Shown: one piece after another, positions 5,432-60,240 of the stretch
How positions within the stretch are numbered: the first letter of the stretch is position 1
How the letters are laid out: each line of letters begins with the position of its first letter
NCBI GenBank assembly: GCA_035379625.1
Contig: DAOSVM010000006.1
Span: 11,485 to 75,484, forward strand
From: Ignavibacteriales bacterium
GTDB taxonomy: Bacteria > Bacteroidota > Ignavibacteria > Ignavibacteriales > DAOSCP01
Length of the DNA: 64,000 bases
Direction of reading: 5' to 3'
The notes under the pieces: generated by a model
What the model was told of the DNA's origin: nothing
What the model saw: the letters and a program-made list of their open reading frames with translations, nothing else
Database searches by the model: none
Program-made: the position numbers and the translations under genes

Positions 5432-6021
5432 TAGCTCGGACGGTGTAGGCTTAAGCCCGTGCGCTGTGCGCACGGGCGGGCTGAAGCCCAAAATATTCGA
5501 TTTACTACGCTATATACAACCTTTTATCAATTGCTTCCAATAATTATATATTTACCATATAGATTTAACATAAATATTTTAATTTGGTTGCAAATTTTAA
5601 AAGCCTGATAATATTTTCGTAAAAATGATATAATTGTATTTACGATATATTAACAAAATTCAGAAATATATTTGTATTTACAATATAATTGTATATACGA
5701 TATATTAGTAATTTTCGATGACATATTTGTAAATACGATATAATAGCTTTTACGATATAATTGTAAATGCAATTATATTATAAAAAAACATCGCATCAAA
5801 TGTAAAAATTTGCAAAATTACATATTAGCTTCGTTAAAAGCTTAATTTTTATCTAACACTTTACGGGTTGCCTGGTATTTTGGAAAGATATGAGTATAAA
5901 GGCTCAAAGCACTACACTTTGTTAGGTGTCAAAGAAAAGATTTTTAGCGGGCCGGAACTGCCCGCTGCCCCTTGCGGCTTGTCACAAGCCGCAAGGGGCT
6001 TAAGCTTACACCGTCTGAGTA
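5432..6021 (+). mobile_element. Non-coding TIR-bounded repeat element, copy 1 (A end to B end on the + strand), 590 bp
   Basis: Left end TA|GCTCGGACGGTGTAGGCTTA; right end TAAGCTTACACCGTCTGAG|TA. Hairpins at 5455-5477 (10-bp stem), 5478-5489, 5946-5966 and 5968-5998 (13-bp perfect stem). AT-rich core holds the 17-bp repeat array. Homologous to the copies at 37503, 54943, 58506 and 25056. Confidence 0.85.
5616..5777 (+). repeat. Tandem array of nine ~17-bp units (consensus WTTGTAWWTACRATATA) organised as 3 x 55-bp higher-order repeats
   Basis: Units read directly: ttcgtaaaaatgatata / attgtatttacgatata / ttaacaaaattcagaaatata / tttgtatttacaatata / attgtatatacgatata / ttagtaattttcgatgacata / tttgtaaatacgatata / atagcttttacgatata / attgtaaatgcaattata. 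Lengths 17+17+21 three times (last unit 18) total 162 bp. Confidence 0.85.
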
Positions 6022-9467: not shown

Positions 9468-9474
9468 AAAAAAA

Positions 9475-9546
9475 GGGCTACACAGCAATCATCCTTACCG
9501 TTGCTGCCTTCCGGCCCTGGCGGGGTTGGGGACTATGCTGTTAGCC
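9475..9546 (-). ncRNA. ffs: Signal recognition particle RNA (small 4.5S type)
   Basis: Minus-strand RNA: GGCUAACAGCAUAGUCCCCAACCCCGCCAGGGCCGGAAGGCAGCAACGGUAAGGAUGAUUGCUGUGUAGCCC followed by U9. It contains the SRP domain IV signature CAGG-CCGGAAGG-AGCA with a GGAA tetraloop. The 5' GGCUAACAGCA pairs with the 3' UGCUGUGUAGCC. Exact ends are uncertain. Confidence 0.7.
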
Positions 9547-9550
9547 AATG

Positions 9551-25055: not shown

Positions 25056-25116
25056 TAGCTCGGACAGTGTAAGCTTATCCCGCGCATTAGCGCGGGTAGC
25101 TATCGCTAAAAATATA
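25056..25116 (+). mobile_element. Truncated copy of the repeat element (A end only)
   Basis: TA|GCTCGGACAGTGTAAGCTTA, hairpin cccgcgc-atta-gcgcggg, mini-hairpin tagc-tatc-gcta, then AAAAATAT. There is weak similarity to the element interior up to about 25250 (..attttaccataaaatattt..). No repeat array, B end or second TIR. Confidence 0.7.
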
Positions 25117-27394: not shown

Positions 27395-29011
27395 ATGATA
27401 AAAGATGAAATATTAAAAAAAATAGGTATAATAATCAATATTTTGAAATATTATGATGAAAATAAATTCAAAATTTTAGCTTATGAGAAAGTTATTGATA
27501 TTATTGAAAAAATTAATGAAAATGAATTGATTTCGTTACTTCAAGAGAAAAGAATAACAGAAGTTGAAGGAATTGGAAAGGGTATTAGTGAAGTTTTATA
27601 TGAAATTTATGAAAATGGCAATGCAAAAATAATTAATGAATTTGTAGAAAATTATGGCGAGGAATTTTTAGATTTGTTTAAGATTAAAGGTTTAGGCGTA
27701 AAAAATATAAAAAAACTTTTTGATTTGTATGGTGTTAATTCATTTGATAAGTTGGATGAATTGTTGGCAAGTGGTGTAAAATTAAAAGAACCTAAATTGA
27801 AAGAAAGTTTAATAAAGAATATAAGAGAACAAATTCCATTTTTGAAAGAAAGTAAGTATAAGTATATATATCCAATAGCCTTGCGAAAAGCTGAGAGGAT
27901 GAAAAAAGTATTAGAAGAAATAGAGGGCGTTGAAATAGTAGAGTTTACGGGTGAAATAGAACGATACGCAGAAGTAGTAAATTTTATAGAGATGGTAGTG
28001 TTATGTAATGGGGATTTATTTAATGAATTGGTGAAAAATTTTGGAAATGTAGAACAAAGAAAAATAAAATTATTTGATTTAGAGCTTGATATCTATCTAA
28101 TTTATTATGATGGGGCACATTATAAGTTATACCACGTTTACGGAAAAAATGATTTAGGGAAAGTTATCAAGTTGACGCGGGCAACGCTTATACTGTCCGA
28201 GCCAATAAAAGATTTAAAAATATTTGAAAAATTTATACCAGAGATGTGGGAAATTGAGAATATAGGGAAAGAGGTTGAAAATGAAAAAATAGTAAAGTAT
28301 GAAGATATTGTTAGTGTTTTGCATTTTCATACGAATTGGAGTGATGGTAGTAATACATTGGAAGAGATGTTTGATGGGATAGAAAAGAGTAAATTTGAGA
28401 TTGCTGGGGTGTGCGATCACAGTAAATCGTCGTTTTGGGCTAACGGATTGAGTGAGGAGGAGGTTTTACAGCAGCATAAAGTTATTGAAGAGTTGCAAAA
28501 AAAGTATAGGATTAAGTTATTAAAAGGCATAGAGTGCGATATACATAAAGATGGTAGTTTGGATTATGGAGATGGTTTTTTGAAAGAGTTTGATTTTGTG
28601 GTAGCTGCTATTCATCAATTTACAGATGATGATGAGGAATTTTATACAAAGAGGATGATAAAAGCAATTGAGAATCAATATGTTAATATAATAGCTCATC
28701 CAACAGGTCGACTATTACTAACAAGGCTGCCGTATCCGATAGATATTTATAAGGTTATAGATGCTTGTGCAAGTAATAATGTAGCAATTGAAATAAACTC
28801 TACTCCATCTAGAATGGATTTAAGTTGGAAGTATTTGGATTATGCGATGAATAGAGGGGCGAGATTTGCTATTAATCCTGATGCGCATTCGACACAGGAA
28901 ATTTTTAATATTGAATATGGTGTTAAATCTGCAAGAAAGGCAGGTGTTTATAAAGAATATGTTATAAATACATATAAATTGGATGAGTTGTTAAGGTGGT
29001 TTAATAAGTAA
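27395..29011 (+). CDS. PolX-like protein (HhH/pol-beta-like N-terminal region + C-terminal PHP phosphoesterase domain)
   Basis: 538 aa. Has ..VEGIGKGISE.. and ..IKGLGVKNIKKL.. HhH motifs, and a PHP domain from ..LHFHTNWSDGS... The middle (28186-28206) contains a sequence resembling the repeat-element terminus. Confidence 0.65.
   Translation: MIKDEILKKIGIIINILKYYDENKFKILAYEKVIDIIEKINENELISLLQEKRITEVEGIGKGISEVLYEIYENGNAKIINEFVENYGEEFLDLFKIKGLGVKNIKKLFDLYGVNSFDKLDELLASGVKLKEPKLKESLIKNIREQIPFLKESKYKYIYPIALRKAERMKKVLEEIEGVEIVEFTGEIERYAEVVNFIEMVVLCNGDLFNELVKNFGNVEQRKIKLFDLELDIYLIYYDGAHYKLYHVYGKNDLGKVIKLTRATLILSEPIKDLKIFEKFIPEMWEIENIGKEVENEKIVKYEDIVSVLHFHTNWSDGSNTLEEMFDGIEKSKFEIAGVCDHSKSSFWANGLSEEEVLQQHKVIEELQKKYRIKLLKGIECDIHKDGSLDYGDGFLKEFDFVVAAIHQFTDDDEEFYTKRMIKAIENQYVNIIAHPTGRLLLTRLPYPIDIYKVIDACASNNVAIEINSTPSRMDLSWKYLDYAMNRGARFAINPDAHSTQEIFNIEYGVKSARKAGVYKEYVINTYKLDELLRWFNK
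28186..28206 (+). repeat. Solo TIR-like remnant of the repeat element inside the PolX-like ORF
   Basis: cgcttatactgtccgagccaat (28185-28206) versus the copy-5 terminus agcttacactgtccgagctaat gives 19/22 identities, same polarity as a right end. It is preceded by a GC-rich mini-palindrome gcgggcaacgc. Confidence 0.5.
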
Positions 29012-35708: not shown

Positions 35709-35783
35709 ATTCTTATTTGATTTTGATAAAATTTGTATTAACTTATTATGGTTATTTTAGGAATTAAAATATTGAGGTTGAGC

Positions 35784-37433
35784 ATGAAAAAATATTTATT
35801 TCTAATACTGTGTTTAACAATGATAATAGCTGCTCAGGAAGGCAGGTATTATAGAAAAACTATTACTTCATTAGGTGGAGTTTTATTTGCTTCTAAACCT
35901 AATGATGAAATTGCAGCAATGATTAATAACAGAATTAAACAGCATATTCATATTGAAAGGTTTGATTACTTAGTTTTAAGTAACGAATACTTAAAAGATT
36001 TTTATTCAACTGTAAATAAAACAAATTTTACGCCGGATGAAATAATAAAAGCACTTGAAAACACTGTACTTAGTGAACTAAAATTAAAACTTGATGAAGT
36101 AAAGGAAATAAGAGCAGCTGCAAATCTAACTGAAGAGCAAAAAGCCCGTGCTATAGTTGATAAAATGAAACAATCAGGAATTGATGAAAAAGATATTTTA
36201 GCCGTTTATAATGCTTCATATTTATATTTACCTGTGATCTTAAGCTTCGATGAAAAGGAAAAAGATAACAATTATACATTTACTATTACAGGTTTTATTC
36301 TTTGGTTTAAAGTTAATACTAAAGATGCTAATAATTTTTCAATAACATTAGTTAATAAAACTCCAATAGCACAAATGGGAATGGAGACGGCTGAACCAAA
36401 TAACACATATCCTATAAAAAATAGGAGTATTGATGGTAAAACTTATGCAAAACTAATGGCTTGTAATACATTAGTTAGAAACTGGGCGGTTGATATGAAA
36501 AAAATTCCAGAATTTTCATTAGCTGGCCAAATAGTTAATGTTGACAAACAAATAGAGGCTAATATAGGTACAAAAGAAGGTGTAGGATTGGATGATGGTT
36601 ATACAGTTTTAGATTATTTTGAAAACGATAATGGTGAAATTGTTAAAAAAGAAGTTGGATTTGTAAGAGCAAATAAAATTGGTGATAATACAAAGGAAGG
36701 TTATAATCCTACCTACTTTAAACCATATATTGGTAAAAATTTTGAAAGAGGCCAATATTTGAGCGAAAGGCCTAATTTAGGTATTGATGTAGGGTTTAGG
36801 CTAAAGTGGGCTGGATTAAATATTTCATCTCAAGATTTTCCTTTTTTGAAAGATGATGTAAAGGGGAGTTTTGGTGCAGATATTTTATTTTCATATAATT
36901 TAGCAAAAAAGACTGGAATTAGCCAATTTTTTGTAAATTTGGAAGCTTATGCTGGCCTTTTAGCAGCTGATGTGAAAAATGATGCTTTATATTCGAATTC
37001 TGATATTAGCAATTTTTATACTTATTCAATTTATCTTTCATTTTCAAAGAAATTTTGGATGGGTAGAAATAACTTAGAACTTGGTGCAGGCTATGGATAC
37101 AATGCAGTATCTTTCAAATATAGCTACGATTATCTACTCATTTCCAATGAATATGAATATGATTTTAAAGCATTAGGATTAAAGTTTGATGTTTCATATA
37201 ATTATTTAGTAAATCCAGAATTACAAATTGGTCTATATGCAGGTTATAAACTAACAACAAATATTACAGAAGCTGATATAAAAGATAAAGACGGCAATAA
37301 ATCTACTTTTGCAATTCACGATTCACATACAAATTTTAAGGGATTAAGTTTTGGTCTACAATTGAATTATGCTGTACCGACATTGCCAATCGATCCATTT
37401 TCAGTTATGACAGCGCAAGATATTAATTATTAA
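35784..37433 (+). CDS. Hypothetical outer-membrane protein (N-terminal soluble domain + C-terminal beta-barrel-like region)
   Basis: Likely start MKKYLFLILCLTMIIAAQ.. (35784). The C-terminal third has alternating amphipathic beta patterns. Confidence 0.45.
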   Translation: MKKYLFLILCLTMIIAAQEGRYYRKTITSLGGVLFASKPNDEIAAMINNRIKQHIHIERFDYLVLSNEYLKDFYSTVNKTNFTPDEIIKALENTVLSELKLKLDEVKEIRAAANLTEEQKARAIVDKMKQSGIDEKDILAVYNASYLYLPVILSFDEKEKDNNYTFTITGFILWFKVNTKDANNFSITLVNKTPIAQMGMETAEPNNTYPIKNRSIDGKTYAKLMACNTLVRNWAVDMKKIPEFSLAGQIVNVDKQIEANIGTKEGVGLDDGYTVLDYFENDNGEIVKKEVGFVRANKIGDNTKEGYNPTYFKPYIGKNFERGQYLSERPNLGIDVGFRLKWAGLNISSQDFPFLKDDVKGSFGADILFSYNLAKKTGISQFFVNLEAYAGLLAADVKNDALYSNSDISNFYTYSIYLSFSKKFWMGRNNLELGAGYGYNAVSFKYSYDYLLISNEYEYDFKALGLKFDVSYNYLVNPELQIGLYAGYKLTTNITEADIKDKDGNKSTFAIHDSHTNFKGLSFGLQLNYAVPTLPIDPFSVMTAQDINY

Positions 37434-37451: not shown

Positions 37452-37483
37452 AGCAAGGAAGCTTTAGCGACCTTGCTTTTTTT
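37452..37483 (+). terminator. Rho-independent terminator
   Basis: agcaagg..(loop)..ccttgct followed by a T-run. Confidence 0.6.
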
Positions 37484-37502
37484 ATTTTAAAAGAATCATA
37501 AT

Positions 37503-37992
37503 TAGCTCGGACGGTATAAGCTTAGCCCCCGTGCGCACGCAGGCGCACGGGGGCAGCGGGCCGGAACGGCCCGCAAAAATGATAAATCTTACGAAGCCGC
37601 TGTGTAATATTATAAATTTATTAATTTGATGTGTTTTTTATATAATTGTATTGACGATTATATTGTAAAAACAATAATATAGTAAATGCGAATATATTTT
37701 TAAAAGTTGTAATAATATCGTATATGCAATTATATCGTAATAGCGAATATATTTTAAAAATTGTTTAAATATCGTAAATGCAAATATATTGTATATACGA
37801 ATATATTATAAGACTTTTGCATTTGCCAGTAATATTTAAAATTTTTCGAATATTTTAATATGGTAAATAATGTAAATGTTGTAAGTAGTTGATAATATTA
37901 TAGATAAGTAGGCATAATTGGAATAATTTTTGGCGTCAGCCTGCCCGTGCGCCTTCGTGCGCACGGGCTTTATGCTTACACTGTCTGAGCTA
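37503..37992 (-). mobile_element. Non-coding TIR-bounded repeat element, copy 3 (B end first on the + strand), 490 bp
   Basis: TA|GCTCGGACGGTATAAGCTTA ... TATGCTTACACTGTCTGAGC|TA. B-end hairpins at 37526-37553 and gcgggccg-gaa-cggcccgc; A-end hairpin cccgtgcgc..gcgcacggg at about 37945-37967. 17-bp array at about 37641-37805. Confidence 0.85.
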
Positions 37993-53871: not shown

Positions 53872-54888
53872 ATGGAACTCAATATAATTTGGTTTATTTT
53901 AATAGCAGTTCTTCTAACCGGATATGTTATTCTAGATGGATTTGATTTAGGAATTGGTTTTGTTAGTTTTTTTGCAAAAAATGATACCGATAAAAGAATA
54001 TTGCTTAATTCGATAGCTCCCGTTTGGGACGGTAATGAAGTTTGGCTTTTAACAGGTGGTGGCGCATTATTTGCTGCGTTCCCAGATGTTTATGCTACTA
54101 TCTTTTCAGGATTTTATATGGCTTTAATGCTTGTTCTTGCAATGCTTATTTTCAGGGCAACAGCACTCGAGTTTAGAAGCAAAAGCGAAAATCCAACTTG
54201 GCGAAAAATTTTCGATAACTTATTTGCCATATCTTCAACAATAGCTGCTTTATTATTCGGGGTTGCTTTAGGAAACGTTGCTAACGGAATATACCTAGAT
54301 GCTAATAAAGAATATGTTGGTACATTTTGGAATCTACTCAATCCATATTCATTAGTTGTAGGCCTTACAGGTTTAGCCCTAATTATAGTACACGGCTTCA
54401 ATTATGCTTTCTACAGAACAGAAAATGAATTACAAAAACTTTTAAAAAGTAAATATAATATATTCTACTATCTATACTTTGCACTATTTGTTATATTAAA
54501 CCTTTTTACAATAATTGCAAAACCACATTTATTACAAAATTATAATTCAAATCCTGTATTATACTTATTACCGTTAGTTAACTTAATTGTTATACTTTTG
54601 ATGTATAAATATCATAAATCCAACTTCCATTTGAAAACATTTTTTATGTCATCCTTATCGATTTTGCTAAATATGCTCACTTTCGCTATTGCAATGTTTC
54701 CAAATTTCGCATATTCTTTAACAGATCCAAAATTAAATTTAACAATTTACAACTCGGCATCATCCCAAAAAACTTTAACAGTTATGCTAATAATTGCCCT
54801 TATTGGAATGCCATTGGTTATAACATATACTATTGTTGTTTACAGAATATTCCGTGGAAAGACTGTATTGAATGAAAATAGTTATTAA
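53872..54888 (+). CDS. cydB: Cytochrome bd ubiquinol oxidase subunit II
   Basis: 338 aa with ..ILDGFDLGIG.., ..WDGNEVWLL.. and about 8 TM helices. Confidence 0.9.
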   Translation: MELNIIWFILIAVLLTGYVILDGFDLGIGFVSFFAKNDTDKRILLNSIAPVWDGNEVWLLTGGGALFAAFPDVYATIFSGFYMALMLVLAMLIFRATALEFRSKSENPTWRKIFDNLFAISSTIAALLFGVALGNVANGIYLDANKEYVGTFWNLLNPYSLVVGLTGLALIIVHGFNYAFYRTENELQKLLKSKYNIFYYLYFALFVILNLFTIIAKPHLLQNYNSNPVLYLLPLVNLIVILLMYKYHKSNFHLKTFFMSSLSILLNMLTFAIAMFPNFAYSLTDPKLNLTIYNSASSQKTLTVMLIIALIGMPLVITYTIVVYRIFRGKTVLNENSY

Positions 54889-54910
54889 TAAACAACACTA
54901 AATTAATTAC

Positions 54911-54939
54911 AAAGCTCTCCTAAAAGAGAGCTTTTTTTT
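54911..54939 (+). terminator. Rho-independent terminator of the cyd operon
   Basis: aaagctctc-ctaaaa-gagagcttt, with the T-run continuing to 54939. Confidence 0.8.
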
Positions 54940-54942
54940 ATA

Positions 54943-55507
54943 TAGCTCAGACAGTGTAAGCTTAAAGCCCGTGCGCCGTGCGGCGCACGGGCAGGCTAAC
55001 GCCCAAAATTTTTCCCCAATACATTCCAATTAATTTTACCAATTTATTTTAATATTTTTACATTTAGCAAAATAACTAAATATTGTTTAATTATTCTTTT
55101 GTATGCTTAATGATAAATACAAAATTAAACATAATATCGTTATAATTATACATCAGATATTACAATAAAATTGCGTTTAAGATATATTATTAATTTTCAA
55201 TAATATATATACAAAAACAATATAATTGCTTATACGATATAATTGTAAATACAATCATATTATATAGAAATCAGAAATAAATATAAAAATATGCAAGATT
55301 ACATATTAGATTTAACAAAAAAAATCAGTCAAACATACAATCTGCACTGCATTTTGACGCTGCATTATAAGAGATGTGGAATTATGAAACTGTTAAGCTA
55401 CACTTTGTAAGGTGATAATGAAAAGATTTTTAGCGGGCCGTTCCGGCCCGCTGCCCCTTGCAGCTTTCCACAAGCTGCAAGGGGCTATACCTATACTGTC
55501 TGAGCTA
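54943..55507 (+). mobile_element. Non-coding TIR-bounded repeat element, copy 4 (A end to B end on the + strand), 565 bp
   Basis: TA|GCTCAGACAGTGTAAGCTTA ... TATACCTATACTGTCTGAGC|TA. A hairpin 54967-54992 (11-bp stem). B hairpins are agcgggccg-ttc-cggcccgct and 55454-55484 (13-bp perfect stem). The 17-bp array at about 55130-55262 is more degenerate. Confidence 0.85.
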
Positions 55508-55675
55508 TATTATTCCTGTATCTTATCAAAAATGTAAAAAAAATATTAATAATATTGTAAAATTGCTGCTATAAAAAATTAGTAGCAAAATTAATAATAA
55601 TTTAATACTGTAATGAGAAAATTGATAATAATTATGATTATATTACATTAAAACAAATCATTTATAAGGAATCAA

Positions 55676-57130
55676 ATGAAAAAAATCATACTTTTATTGT
55701 TTACTACTATTATTATTTTTTCACAAGAACTAAGAGTAACCGATATGAATGGTTATTCTGTAGAAAAACCACAAATGGCTATACATAATGGCTTAGTGCA
55801 TCTAACCTACGCTACAAATTATAGGTATTATCAGTTTCCTTTAACTGGACCAATCGCCCCTATTTCAAATCCAAAAAATATTTTTCCTTACCAATGGGGA
55901 CCAACAAACGTTTCAATTGCAGCTGGTGGTAATTATGTATCTTCTTTGATTATTGATTACTTAAGCACTTCAGGAAAATTTATCCTATACAATTTTTTTT
56001 CAAATGATATTGGCAATAATTGGTCGATTGAACAACTTGTTGATACTGTTGAAATTTCAAGCTCTTTGACTTTAAGAAGTGATCTTCCAAAAGTTTTAAG
56101 TACTCATGATGGTAATTTTTACTATTTATGGTTCAATTTTCATAAACAAAATGCAAATTCTCAATTAATGTTTAGTAATAACTTTGGTTATATTAAAAAA
56201 GAAATTGGTGACACAAATTACGAAGATGTAGTTAATATGACAGTTCGTAAAATTATTAATCAGGATTATATTGCAATAACCTATGCTTATAATTCAATTG
56301 GTAAAACTAATGCATATTTTGTGATATCCACTGACGGTGGCAATACTTTTAGCCAACCTAAAATATTTTTTAGTGATACTAATAGTATGGGATATACTAA
56401 TGTCGAGCAAACTTGGGTTAAAATTATGCCCGATTTAAGCATATTTACAGCAATCTCTTATTCTAAAATGACATTTGGTCAGCCTGGACAACACGAATGG
56501 CAGGGTGGTACATATTTATTTAAATCTACTAATTTAGGAAATTCGTGGGAACCATATTTACAAATTGATACTGTTTATGAATATTATCATTCAATATTTG
56601 ATATGACAGATGAAAAAGTTATTGTTAAACTTTGCAGATATGATAACATGTACTTAAAAACAACAATAGATTGTCAAAATTGGTCTGTTTCAGATAACCT
56701 ACTTTCTATTGATAGCTTGCAAATATACAGTCCTACGATGATATTAGATAATAATAAAGCAGCAACCGCATGGATTGATTATAGAACAGGTCATCCAGAA
56801 ATTTATTACAGATATGTAGATATTCCGCAAGCGCCTGTATCTGTAATTTCAAGTAATAATAAGATTGAAAACTTTATACTATATCAAAATTATCCAAATC
56901 CATTTAACCCAAGTACTATCATAAAATTTGTTAACAATAAAAGTCAGAACATCAAAATATCTGTTTATGATATAATGGGAAAAAAAGTTGCTAATTTATT
57001 AGATAAACATTTTAGTGCAGGCTCATATGAAATTAATTTTATCCCAAATAATTTAAATTCAGGAGTATATTTTGCAGTCGTTGAAACACCAAATTTTAAA
57101 AAGTCTATAAAAATGGTTTATTTGAAATAA
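55676..57130 (+). CDS. BNR/Asp-box repeat protein with T9SS C-terminal sorting domain
   Basis: 484 aa with a signal peptide. Asp-boxes ..STDGGNTFS.. and ..STNLGNSWE... C-terminus ..LYQNYPNPFNPSTIIKF...GVYFAVVET.. Confidence 0.7.
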   Translation: MKKIILLLFTTIIIFSQELRVTDMNGYSVEKPQMAIHNGLVHLTYATNYRYYQFPLTGPIAPISNPKNIFPYQWGPTNVSIAAGGNYVSSLIIDYLSTSGKFILYNFFSNDIGNNWSIEQLVDTVEISSSLTLRSDLPKVLSTHDGNFYYLWFNFHKQNANSQLMFSNNFGYIKKEIGDTNYEDVVNMTVRKIINQDYIAITYAYNSIGKTNAYFVISTDGGNTFSQPKIFFSDTNSMGYTNVEQTWVKIMPDLSIFTAISYSKMTFGQPGQHEWQGGTYLFKSTNLGNSWEPYLQIDTVYEYYHSIFDMTDEKVIVKLCRYDNMYLKTTIDCQNWSVSDNLLSIDSLQIYSPTMILDNNKAATAWIDYRTGHPEIYYRYVDIPQAPVSVISSNNKIENFILYQNYPNPFNPSTIIKFVNNKSQNIKISVYDIMGKKVANLLDKHFSAGSYEINFIPNNLNSGVYFAVVETPNFKKSIKMVYLK

Positions 57131-57150
57131 TTAAAAAAAAATAAATATAA

Positions 57151-57178
57151 AAAAGCTGCCTTCAAGGCAGCTTTTTTA
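57151..57178 (+). terminator. Rho-independent terminator
   Basis: aaaagctgcc-ttca(a)-ggcagctttttt. Confidence 0.8.
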
Positions 57179-57285
57179 ATGTAATTTAAATTATTGTTAT
57201 TCATATGTTAAGTAATGTTAAAATTTATTTTTATATTTAAAATAAAATATTTATATTGTGATATATAAACAATAAAAGGTAGTAT

Positions 57286-58629
57286 ATGTTACCCCAAAAA
57301 AATGACACATTTTGGAGAAACCTTGTTACAGGTAAAATCGAACATGAATTTAATTTTATGGTTGCTAGTCTACTTGTAAAAAGATTAAATTTAACTACTT
57401 ATTTCGACCCTTCTGAAGAAACCATAAGTAAATGTATTGATGAAGTATATGATTTTTTTACAAAGTATCAAAAATTTTTAAATAAAGATATAATTCCATT
57501 GCTTGGTATTCCAAGTATTATGCAACTTATGACAGTTGAGCAGGCAAAAGAAGAAATTAAAAAGGGAAAAAATTTAATTATTGCCGGAAATGAAAAAATA
57601 CTATCTGCTTTACCAGCCGGTAATTGGATAGCTGGTACAAGTAATTCTTTCATTGATAAAAACTCGTGTATAACAACTGATGATTTATTGTTTGTAAATG
57701 AACTACCATACTACATTGAAAATATAAAAATTGAAGAATTTACAGAAAATAATATTCAAAATATAAATAGAAATTCCTACGATAATGGCTTTACAATATT
57801 AATTTTACCATTTGAAAGTAAAATACATATTAAATATGCAAAAAATGCAGCGTTCTTTGAAAGTATTTATACATCACCTATAATAGGTTGGATAGCTGGA
57901 GATATTGATAATTCCCGAGCAAAAATATTTAATGGTAAAGAGCTTACATCATCATCTCATAAAGGCATTGCAATGTATTGCGAACTACCCAAAGATAAAA
58001 CTGCAAAATTAAGTATAATAAATTTGTTTAAACCAAATTTAAATTATAAAATTGAATTTTTAGAAGATAGTTTCTACATTAATGAAGCCTTAGTAAACGG
58101 TAAAAAAGTTAAATTTTTAGAATTTTTAAAAAGCATGAATTACGATATAAAAAACCCGCTTACAGCAAATTTGTATGGTTCCTTCATAAATGTAAGCTTT
58201 AAAGAAATTATTAATGACAATATTTATATGTACGCCCCTGTTTTCAAAGGAACTGAATACCATTTATCGATACCTATAAGTAATTACGTAGATGAATTTA
58301 ATTCAATAGAACAAATAAACGCTAACCCAGTATTTAGTTGTCATTGTATATTAAATTATAAATATTCGGAGTTAGAAGGGAAAAAATTAAATAATTTTTA
58401 TGGACCGTCTACATATGGAGAAATAGGCTATATTTTACTAAATCAGACAGTAGCATATTTAGAAATATTAAAAAAAAGCTGTCTTGTAAGGCAGCTTATT
58501 TTATTTAGCTCAGACAGTATAGGCATAGCCTCTTGCGGCTTGTGCCAAGCCGCAAGAGGCAGCGGGCCGGAACGGCCCGCTAAAACTCTTTCTTTATCAC
58601 CTTACAAAGAGCGGTGCTTTATGGCCTAA
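57286..58629 (+). CDS. Hypothetical cytoplasmic protein; the last ~41 codons are read from a terminator and repeat-element copy 5
   Basis: 447-aa ORF with no recognisable motif. From about 58476 the frame passes through a terminator hairpin and then the element B end (..FSSDSIGIASCGLCQAARGSGPERPAK..). Confidence 0.5.
   Translation: MLPQKNDTFWRNLVTGKIEHEFNFMVASLLVKRLNLTTYFDPSEETISKCIDEVYDFFTKYQKFLNKDIIPLLGIPSIMQLMTVEQAKEEIKKGKNLIIAGNEKILSALPAGNWIAGTSNSFIDKNSCITTDDLLFVNELPYYIENIKIEEFTENNIQNINRNSYDNGFTILILPFESKIHIKYAKNAAFFESIYTSPIIGWIAGDIDNSRAKIFNGKELTSSSHKGIAMYCELPKDKTAKLSIINLFKPNLNYKIEFLEDSFYINEALVNGKKVKFLEFLKSMNYDIKNPLTANLYGSFINVSFKEIINDNIYMYAPVFKGTEYHLSIPISNYVDEFNSIEQINANPVFSCHCILNYKYSELEGKKLNNFYGPSTYGEIGYILLNQTVAYLEILKKSCLVRQLILFSSDSIGIASCGLCQAARGSGPERPAKTLSLSPYKERCFMA
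58476..58505 (+). terminator. Rho-independent terminator-like hairpin (inside the 3' end of ORF 57286-58629)
   Basis: aagctgtc-ttgtaa-ggcagctt followed by attttattt. The sequence is related to the terminator at 57151. Confidence 0.6.
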
Positions 58630-59035
58630 ATATTCAAATCTTTCCAAAATACGCGGCAGCTTACAATTGATGCGATTTTTTTTTATAATATAACTGCATT
58701 CCCAATTATATCGTAAAATCAATTATATTGTATTTACAAATATATTATTAAAAATTACTAATATATCGTATATACAATTATATTACAAATACAAATATAT
58801 TTTTAAAAAAAAGAATATATCGAAAATACAATTATATCGTAATTACGAAAATATTTTAATATTTTTAAAGTTTGGTATTACTTTGGAAAATTTTTAATCA
58901 ATAGTTATATTGGTAGATGTATAAATGTTGTATATGGTTGATATTATGTAAGATATGGTTTAATTAGTGAAATATATTTTGGGCGTTAGCCCGCCCGTGC
59001 GGCGCACGGGCTTTAAGCTTACACTGTCCGAGCTA
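58506..59035 (-). mobile_element. Non-coding TIR-bounded repeat element, copy 5 (B end first on the + strand), 530 bp
   Basis: TA|GCTCAGACAGTATAGGCATA ... TTAAGCTTACACTGTCCGAGC|TA. B hairpins are 58529-58559 (13-bp perfect stem) and gcgggccg-gaa-cggcccgc. A hairpin is cccgtgc-ggc-gcacggg near 58994-59010. The interior aligns well with the reverse complement of copy 1. Confidence 0.85.
58689..58849 (-). repeat. Tandem array of nine ~17-bp units (reverse-complement form TATATYGTAWWTACAAW), 3 x ~55 bp
   Basis: Units: tataactgcattcccaat / tatatcgtaaaatcaat / tatattgtatttacaaa / tatattattaaaaattactaa / tatatcgtatatacaat / tatattacaaatacaaa / tatatttttaaaaaaaagaa / tatatcgaaaatacaat / tatatcgtaattacgaa. 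Confidence 0.85.
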
Positions 59036-59043
59036 ATGAAGTA

Positions 59044-60240
59044 CTATAAAACTAACTTTGCTTTTTCTAAACCATTATTCAAATCTTCTAGTAAATCATT
59101 AATATCTTCAATCCCAACTGATATTCTAATTAAACCATCTGTTATTCCACTTTTTAGCCTTTGTTCTACAGGGACACTCGCATGCGTCATGCTGGCAGGG
59201 TGTTGAATTAAAGATTCGACGCCACCTAAACTAACAGCTAATTGAAATAAATTCAAATTATTCATAAGTTCAACACCTGTTCTAAGACCACCTTTAATTT
59301 CACATGAAATTACGGCGCCTGGACCTTTAGCTTGTTTATCGTGGATATTTTTATTAGGATGATTTGGTAAACCTGGAAAATAAACCTTTTCAATTAATGG
59401 ATGATTAGCTAAAAATTCTGCAACTTTTTGAGCATTAAAATTATGTTTTTCCATTCTGACAGATAATGTTTTAACACCACGATGGATTAGAAATGAATTG
59501 AACGGGTCAATAACTCCACCAGTTTGATTTAAAGTTTTACGCATTAAAGTGTACATATCTTGATCTTTAACAACTACAATTCCAGCAATAACATCAGCAT
59601 GGCCATTTATATATTTTGACATACTATGTAAAACAACATCTGCTCCTAATAATAATGGTTTTTGTAAAGCCGGACTCATAAAAGCATTATCAACTACAAG
59701 TAAAGCACCATATTGGTGAGCCAATTTTGCCAATTCTTCTATATCGCTAATATCTAAAGTTGGGTTCCCAGGAGTTTCTATATAGACTAATTTAGTATTC
59801 TTTCTTTTTAATGAATTTTCAACAATATTTAAATCGCTTGTATTAATGAAAGTAGATTCAATGTTAAATTTAGCAAAAATAGTATCAAGAAGAGTAATGG
59901 TAGGTCCATATAAACTATGCGAAGCAACGACATGATCACCAGTCTTTAATAATGAAGCAAAAACAGTATGAATAGCAGCCATACCACTAGCGCAACCAAG
60001 AGCTTTATAACCGCCTTCCAAAGATGCAATCGAATTTTCCATAGCTTCAATTGTTGGATTATTAAGCCTTGTGTAATTATAACCTTTAATCTTTCCAGCA
60101 AAAATATTTGCTCCTTGTTCAGCATTATCGAAACGAAAAGTAGATGTTTGATAAATTGGTGGGACTACCGGGCCAAATTCGTAATCTTCTATCCCTGCGT
60201 GGATACATAGAGTATCAAAATTTTTGAAATTGTTTGACAT
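59044..60240 (-). CDS. Cys/Met-metabolism PLP-dependent enzyme (methionine gamma-lyase / cystathionine gamma-synthase family)
   Basis: 398 aa with ..YTRLNNPT.. and ..HSMSKYINGHADVIAG.. (PLP-lysine motif). Confidence 0.85.
   Translation of the reverse strand: MSNNFKNFDTLCIHAGIEDYEFGPVVPPIYQTSTFRFDNAEQGANIFAGKIKGYNYTRLNNPTIEAMENSIASLEGGYKALGCASGMAAIHTVFASLLKTGDHVVASHSLYGPTITLLDTIFAKFNIESTFINTSDLNIVENSLKRKNTKLVYIETPGNPTLDISDIEELAKLAHQYGALLVVDNAFMSPALQKPLLLGADVVLHSMSKYINGHADVIAGIVVVKDQDMYTLMRKTLNQTGGVIDPFNSFLIHRGVKTLSVRMEKHNFNAQKVAEFLANHPLIEKVYFPGLPNHPNKNIHDKQAKGPGAVISCEIKGGLRTGVELMNNLNLFQLAVSLGGVESLIQHPASMTHASVPVEQRLKSGITDGLIRISVGIEDINDLLEDLNNGLEKAKLVL

Follow-up and report, generated by a model that had tools for sequence, protein, structure and literature searches.

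The 64,000-nt stretch of Ignavibacteriales DNA analysed here (the window) most probably holds four copies of a lineage-specific, non-autonomous mobile family bounded by terminal inverted repeats (TIRs), a reading to which we assign a probability of about 60%. The short members would be MITE-like, the longer ones with passenger genes would resemble mobile insertion cassettes (MICs), and both would be moved in trans. The closest known kind is the bacterial MITE for the non-coding copies and the mobile insertion cassette for the cargo-carrying relatives. The family is marked by a 20-bp TIR together with subterminal GC hairpins, while the interior is modular, exchangeable and far less conserved, and its units are spread over many unrelated loci in several related species. 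Compared with Rfam, plasmids, phages, IMG/VR and the literature, it appears to be a previously uncatalogued, high-copy and, for a MITE, unusually elaborate repeat family of uncultured Ignavibacteriales.

Using the 20-bp TIR GCTCRGACRGTRTARGYWTA as the pattern and allowing up to 3 mismatches, we found 10 matches in the window (GC ~29%), against 0.09 expected by chance. Eight of these are the ends of the four full copies, and the other two are a solo end at 25058 and a remnant at 28183-28202. The full copies are all type-1 elements: copy 1 (5434..6020, + strand), copy 2 (37505..37990, -), which is devoid of the semi-conserved block described below, copy 3 (54945..55505, +), whose A end lies 5 nt past the T-run of the terminator downstream of a cydB-like gene (53872-54888), and copy 4 (58508..59033, -). 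The solo end (25058..25113, +) is of the A type and consists of a TIR, the hairpin CCCGCGC-ATTA-GCGCGGG, a mini-hairpin and AAAAT. The remnant (28183..28202, -, 2 mismatches) lies within the PolX coding sequence and was absent from the earlier list, which came from a sequence-only reading of the window. That reading had ascribed one architecture to five loci, and the same layout is indeed read at the four full loci, which align end to end with 73% mean column identity. The TIR matches and the alignment, in which no ORF is conserved, also agree with its description of a non-coding, multi-copy, TIR-bounded and MITE-like element present in both orientations.

Copy 1 shows the plan of a full type-1 element, read from A end to B end. 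Following a TA at 5432-5433, it opens with a TIR free of mismatches (5434..5453, +), A-end hairpin 1, GCCCGTGCGC-TGT-GCGCACGGGC (5455..5477, +), and the mini-hairpin GGGCTGAAGCCC with AAAAT (5478..5494, +), which is kept in a consensus of 46 copies. The core array (5607..5765, +) comprises 2.8 units of 55 bp, each with two 17-18-bp TACRATATAATTGTA sub-repeats, and is promoter-like toward the B end. TRF reported a period of 55 bp in 2.8 copies with a 17-bp sub-period, and the 17-bp tandem repeat described earlier is this sub-period inside the 55-bp period. The array is followed by the semi-conserved block (5868..5945, +; ending ...TTTGTWAGGTGWYAAAGAAAAGATTTTT), which has no conserved RNA fold or ORF, and then by B-end hairpin 2 of the AGCGGGCCG-loop-CGGCCCGCT type (5946..5966, +), invariant in sequence family-wide, B-end hairpin 1, GCCCCTTGCGGC...GCCGCAAGGGGC (5967..5999, +), whose stem co-varies family-wide, and a TIR with 1 mismatch (6001..6020, -). 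On the right, this copy is flanked by AA, a reading that changes only if the TIR is taken to have lost 1 nt. The GC-rich hairpins at the ends are present as originally described. The A and B ends had been called different, and they are different modules, but they share a common plan of TIR, hairpin 1, hairpin 2 and A-run. The remark that copy 1 occupies the thrC position after thrA-thrB has no bearing on the element; the locus downstream of thrB in L017, which is related to the copy 1 site, is rearranged and was set aside as uninformative.

The type-1 consensus built from the 46-copy alignment is 535 bp long. Its A side contains, in order, the TIR, hairpin 1 (GCCCGTGCGCC...), the mini-hairpin GGGCTAACGCCC, an A-run and a spacer of ~130 bp; the middle holds three 55-bp units with two TACRATATAATTGTA sub-repeats apiece, followed by the semi-conserved block; and the B side is formed by the hairpin AGCGGGCCG..CGGCCCGCT, the hairpin GCCCCTTGCRGC.. 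and the TIR. In type-1 units the array always points from the A end toward the B end. Among the 46 copies, pairwise identity is 90-93% in the TIRs, 85% in the hairpins, 76% in the array, 61-62% in the spacer and block and 51-52% in the flanks. The overall median is 72%, which, with the ends so tight, points to an old family with strongly constrained ends; given this age, mobility is not claimed for the present day.

The hairpins themselves differ in what is conserved. A perfect stem of at least 6 bp is present in 170 of 200 distinct ends, drawn from a handful of stem types. In 81 B ends, the stem column pair 33/48 is GC in 41, AU in 37 and UA in 1, and 96% of the cells examined for this stem are paired overall, compared with 25-36% in slid controls. 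In hairpin 1 the structure is kept while the stem sequence varies, whereas B-end hairpin 2 is invariant in sequence. The semi-conserved block has no conserved fold beyond the end hairpins and no conserved ORF. There is also a third end type, in which the TIR is followed by a true terminator hairpin with a T-run and then by TTGCAATTCTTGCAA. Separately, a second, unrelated palindrome (for example CCCCTAAATCCCCCCTTACTAAGGGGGGATTTAGGGG and CCCCCTT..AAGGGGGA) occurs in intergenic DNA and beside some B ends (L017 9120-9165, elements L039 and L088).

A metagenome scan with the TIR pattern returned at least 106 matching stretches. Among the listed metagenome loci and the window, there are at least 90 paired units of 147-2363 bp, at least 82 of them distinct, and at least 55 solo ends; the distinct ends number at least 200. 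Further copies elsewhere, which the sequence-only reading had proposed to look for, are thus provided by at least 82 distinct TIR-bounded units. These units have TIRs and are non-coding, multi-copy and dispersed over different loci, as expected of a MITE, but the 535-bp consensus, within a size range of 147-2363 bp, exceeds the MITE limit of ~200-300 bp. The family is carried by at least four related species-level lineages: the window species, L017, whose flanking genes are ~74% identical to those of the window, the Ga0116168 population, and MAG AMR_MDS_1854, the flanks of the last two being 77% identical to each other. In a scan of a genome collection, the motif and the hairpin architecture occurred together in an Ignavibacteriales MAG only. 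The matches outside Ignavibacteriales (L004-L012) were rejected as chance, since they lie in high-GC or coding contexts and are devoid of the hairpin architecture.

The family had no match in the collections searched. At the gathering threshold, Rfam gave no match to the element in the window, and at E-values up to 1 it gave chance-level matches only across 54900-59100, which spans copies 3 and 4; the catalogue match that could have removed the novelty was thus absent from Rfam. BLAST of the element against plasmids and phages returned only AT-rich chance matches, an IMG/VR scan with the TIR pattern gave 0 matches, and a literature search gave 0 matches for the TIR strings and nothing relevant for Ignavibacteria combined with transposable elements. 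The only Rfam family reaching threshold in the window is the bacterial small SRP RNA, located away from the element at 9469-9550 (-) with 53.9 bits against a gathering score of 40. A tRNA scan of the window found none.

We then compared the insertion sites. For the 36 elements with genes on both sides, the context is convergent in 19, tandem in 16 and divergent in 1, and element orientation in the tandem contexts is unbiased (4 versus 5). In 28 of 39 terminator-preceded cases the TIR starts 13-27 nt from the start of the T-run, with a mode of 15 nt. The results demonstrate a strong bias, of insertion or of retention, toward 3' gene ends just downstream of intrinsic terminators. The earlier claim that every copy sits behind a gene 3' end holds for the four full copies, but the solo end at 25058 is placed upstream of a gene instead. 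A similar site preference is seen in class C bacterial group II introns, which integrate a short and rather constant distance past the hairpins of intrinsic terminators. Unlike these introns, the present units are DNA elements bounded by TIRs, and they lack both an intron RNA structure and a reverse transcriptase.

One terminator hairpin, the T-module, stands out in this context. Its sequence runs GCA(A/G)G.(G/A)AGC, GNRA-like loop, GC(G/A)A.CTTGC and T7, with tandem G.A mismatches, and the T7 is followed by ATTTTAAAA. It is found in the window outside the B end of copy 2 (37453..37502, +), as the hairpin GCAAGGAAGC-TTTA-GCGACCTTGC, T7 and ATTTTAAAAGAATCATAAT, where it doubles as the terminator of the gene at 35748-37433, as well as in L117 (-) at about 977 and at many other places. 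An element TIR follows this hairpin, which lies outside the TIR, in 18 of 21 distinct occurrences, and one unoccupied example exists. Such a tight association means either that targeting is very specific or that some elements do not truly end at the TIR; the T-module may be a preferred target or an optional outer module.

The flanking dinucleotides are less informative. TA flanks had been reported for each copy: A ends nearly always carry TA, but B ends carry TA, TG or GG. Both sides carry TA in 37 of 74 units, a share that shuffled partners also reach, and the two flanks do not co-vary. No direct repeat of 3-9 bp was detected at any offset in the flanks of the 74 units, and nested insertions able to reveal a target-site duplication (TSD) were absent among the longer copies. 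The proposal that TA is a target-site duplication gains no support from these flanks, in which TA/TA stays at the shuffled-partner level and a longer duplication is absent.

Evidence for past mobility comes from comparison between species. In L122, the orthologs of the met-gamma-lyase and DUF6976 genes are convergent and 36 nt apart, with one bidirectional terminator and no element, and the corresponding intergenic site in the window is occupied by copy 4. An empty orthologous site had been named as a useful check, and this related-species locus provides one; the filled/empty case is single, and its orthologs are 82% (met-gamma-lyase) and 65% (DUF6976) identical to the window genes. No precise empty site and no strain-level empty site was found: all same-strain contigs carry the copies, and searches with joined flanks gave internal length polymorphism only. 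An 890-bp half-element (the right part of an hsdS-carrying unit, extending 13 nt past the TIR) shares 98.8% identity across two species, against 77% for the flanks and the left part. The two stretches are L033 4843-5734 and L103 451-1346, and the 98.8% identity covers the second TRD of an orphan hsdS and the A end of the element. At the level of sequence, this indicates a recent exchange of a restriction-specificity module between the L033 and L103 species.

Contigs often end inside copies. In one pair of loci (L049 2146 and L102 9942), the inner sequences match at 99% identity, and the adjacent end module (hairpin type) and outer flank differ. This pair suggests ectopic recombination between copies, which would act as rearrangement breakpoints.

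Copies also enter coding sequence. A 147-bp TIR-to-TIR mini-copy (49 codons; L049 4288-4434, also in L074 and L102) lies in frame in a 1213-aa PLD-SNF2 helicase, within a 69-aa insertion that is absent from 7 homologs, an RPE-like invasion of coding sequence. In the window, the DUF6976 gene (57286-58629) encodes 447 aa compared with 396 aa for its L122 ortholog; it has no stop at the ortholog's stop, reads through its own terminator hairpin and then runs into copy 4, where ~41 codons fall in the B end. The ORFs at the element ends had been dismissed as mere translations of the GC-rich ends, and it is true that none is conserved, but the ORF at 57286-58629 is more than an end, its ortholog stopping 51 codons earlier. 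In the PolX gene (27395-29011), the TIR remnant at 28183-28202 has a short palindrome after it, and its translation reads ...TRATLILSEP.... PolX residues ~202-298, which hold the remnant, do not align to solved PolX structures, and the remnant may be an old in-frame insertion.

The enzyme that would have moved these units was sought in the window and in related loci. Pfam annotations of the whole window contain no transposase or recombinase, as the sequence-only reading had stated, and PF01797 is likewise absent. When all ORFs in the related loci, 1.1 Mb in total, were clustered, no multi-copy protein family emerged that could be the cognate transposase, and no other IS-like inverted-repeat pairs were found there. 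Widely spaced TIR pairs were considered as an autonomous partner and rejected, as they held hsdS, a restriction-modification pair, or host genes between two separate elements. The longer element with the same TIR and a transposase that had been anticipated is thus absent from the 1.1 Mb, where the long units hold hsdS or a methylase instead. The mobile-family reading is weakened by these negative searches, by the lack of a demonstrable TSD or a strain-level empty site, by the high share of solo ends and by the T-module outside the TIR. In this reading, a transposase encoded elsewhere in the genome, or since lost, would bind the TIR and move the unit in trans, with insertion into AT-rich DNA, mostly at TA. 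The foremost candidate for the mobiliser, still unproven, is a DDE enzyme of the IS630/Tc1 type that targets TA.

A different enzyme would be implied if the family were REP/REPIN-like, with the 20-mer and hairpin forming an end module that is recognised as folded ssDNA by a single-copy Y1-HUH (RAYT-like) protein, and with full elements being inverted doublets around captured DNA. In REP, BIME and REPIN-RAYT systems, GC-rich hairpins lie outside genes and close to their 3' ends, arranged in inverted pairs, and many units stand alone. The present family resembles them in that its hairpin structure is kept by compensatory changes while the stem sequence varies, many end modules of ~70 nt are solo, and the location is extragenic and terminator-adjacent; no TSD can be demonstrated, and no DDE transposase was found in the window and the 1.1 Mb of loci. 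However, the best-conserved part is a non-palindromic 20-mer that lies outside the hairpin and is arranged as a true TIR, a GTAG-type tetranucleotide is absent, and the unit is not a 20-40-nt imperfect palindrome. The paired ends are ~500 bp apart around a conserved polar core, compared with ~100 bp in REPINs, and no Y1_Tnp (RAYT) gene is seen in the window annotations. The likeness to REP/RAYT raised by the sequence-only reading thus fails on the defining features (the 20-mer, GTAG and PF01797 in the window), and we regard this explanation as unlikely. About equally doubtful is the idea that the TIR and hairpin modules are the portable boundaries of an undescribed mobilisation system, perhaps guided by hairpins or structure and run by an HUH enzyme or another recombinase, that would home to GNRA-looped terminators with G.A mismatches and shuttle insulated promoter cassettes and restriction-modification genes among Ignavibacteriales.

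The core had been called iteron-like, and a promoter-like array is the better reading: in larger relatives the array precedes the cargo gene and points the same way. Copy 4 has three TTAAAA/TTAATA-N17-18-TATAAT sites at 55-bp intervals on the A-to-B strand. Among the 46 copies, the A-to-B strand carries a mean of 5.1 promoter-like matches per copy and the opposite strand 3.2, compared with 1.9 per strand once the copies are shuffled. In the hsdS units L033 and L058, the 17-mer array lies upstream of the gene in the same orientation. Based on the phased sigma-70-like sites, the strand bias and the position before the cargo gene, we infer that the core is probably a tandem, phased promoter region of the sigma-70 type. 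The 55-bp repeat core would have been handed down from cargo-carrying ancestors as such a region, and the GC hairpins, with the U-rich inner portion of the TIR that comes after them, would shield the promoter from its neighbours and stop read-through.

The interior is exchangeable. Units with the same ends carry differing cores, one of which is an array of GGTGGCA...TGCCACC palindromes, and in longer type-1 copies the stretch that leads from the array to the B end is replaced. A type-2 element sampled twice at one locus measures 379 bp in L092 (12100-12478) and 317 bp in L094 (9796-10112), a difference of one ~62-bp repeat unit in its GGTGGCA/TGCCACC palindrome array. Cargo consists of an N6_N4_Mtase with a RAMA domain plus a 289-aa ORF (L061 2259-4621), a two-domain hsdS (L033 3754-5721), or a one-domain, half-length hsdS (L058 1573-2982, and likewise in L103). 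TIRs enclosing passenger genes without a transposase, the arrangement that defines a MIC, are accordingly found in the relatives L061, L033 and L058, all of which are outside the window. The MIC231/IS231 system of Bacillus cereus shows the same arrangement, with IS-type TIRs enclosing passenger genes but no transposase. Both are modular families in which the same ends hold different contents. They differ in that the passengers here are restriction-modification components, most copies are geneless, and a cognate IS was not found.

An inverted repeat of 20 bp around ~500 bp with promoter-like repeats would also fit host-serving invertible promoter cassettes of a regulatory kind, in which the TIRs would be the crossover sites for a global invertase that flips the array. 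The FCB group, including Ignavibacteria, is known for global invertases, and the orientation of the array relative to the B end is opposite in hsdS-carrying and type-1 units. However, an inverted segment was seen in 0 of 35 overlapping contig pairs from independent assemblies (these being consensus assemblies and not reads), the 19 of 36 elements between convergent genes have nothing to drive, the 4 versus 5 split in tandem contexts gives no preferred direction, and no recombinase is encoded nearby. We therefore consider this explanation very improbable. Least credible is a multicopy small-RNA or type I toxin-antitoxin family in which the array promotes an RNA of ~170 nt ending at the B-end hairpins: the promoter-like sites are aimed at the semi-conserved block and then at two strong hairpins, and the size is similar to that of the E. 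coli LDR repeats, but apart from the two end hairpins the block shows neither a conserved fold nor covariation, no conserved small ORF or Rfam match was found, the block is missing or replaced in copy 2 and many other copies, and the TIRs and cargo-carrying variants are left unexplained.

Returning to the mobile-family reading, we compared the units with the bacterial MITEs, including the Correia/NEMIS elements of Neisseria, RUP, ERIC and RPE, which have been reviewed (PMC2229807). The likeness to Correia elements and other MITEs lies in the non-coding, high-copy, AT-rich nature, in TIRs of ~20-26 bp and in 5'-TA-3' termini; it extends to internal promoter-like or protein-binding motifs, to the stable stem-loop transcripts of the known systems and to occasional in-frame gene insertion as in RPE (PMC2229807). 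In contrast, the present family is ~535 bp long and theirs are <200 bp (PMC2229807). Each end here has two discrete GC hairpins rather than one long TIR stem, and the A and B ends are polar. Exchangeable cores, cargo-carrying relatives and a strong terminator association further set the family apart, and no sequence similarity was found. MITEs derived from IS630/Tc1-mariner elements, such as RUP with IS630-Spn1, resemble the family in its TIR of ~20 bp, in a target context that is AT-rich and symmetric, and in the TA that about half of the copies have at both termini, whereas here no TA duplication is demonstrated and no IS630-like partner was found in the window or the 1.1 Mb of loci. The assignment of the family to Correia or IS630 is therefore a lead only.

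The family, with roughly one copy per 13 kb and ~3.5% of the window DNA, has a major part in shaping these genomes. Its copies break assemblies, several contigs ending inside them, and mark rearrangement breakpoints; they extend or invade coding sequences, as in DUF6976, PolX and a helicase, and they carry restriction-modification specificity genes from one species to another. The family also explains the spurious ORFs that annotators of Ignavibacteriales MAGs meet at GC-rich ends. It also offers a well-populated test case for terminator-proximal targeting and for selection on hairpin structure at the ends of a mobile element.
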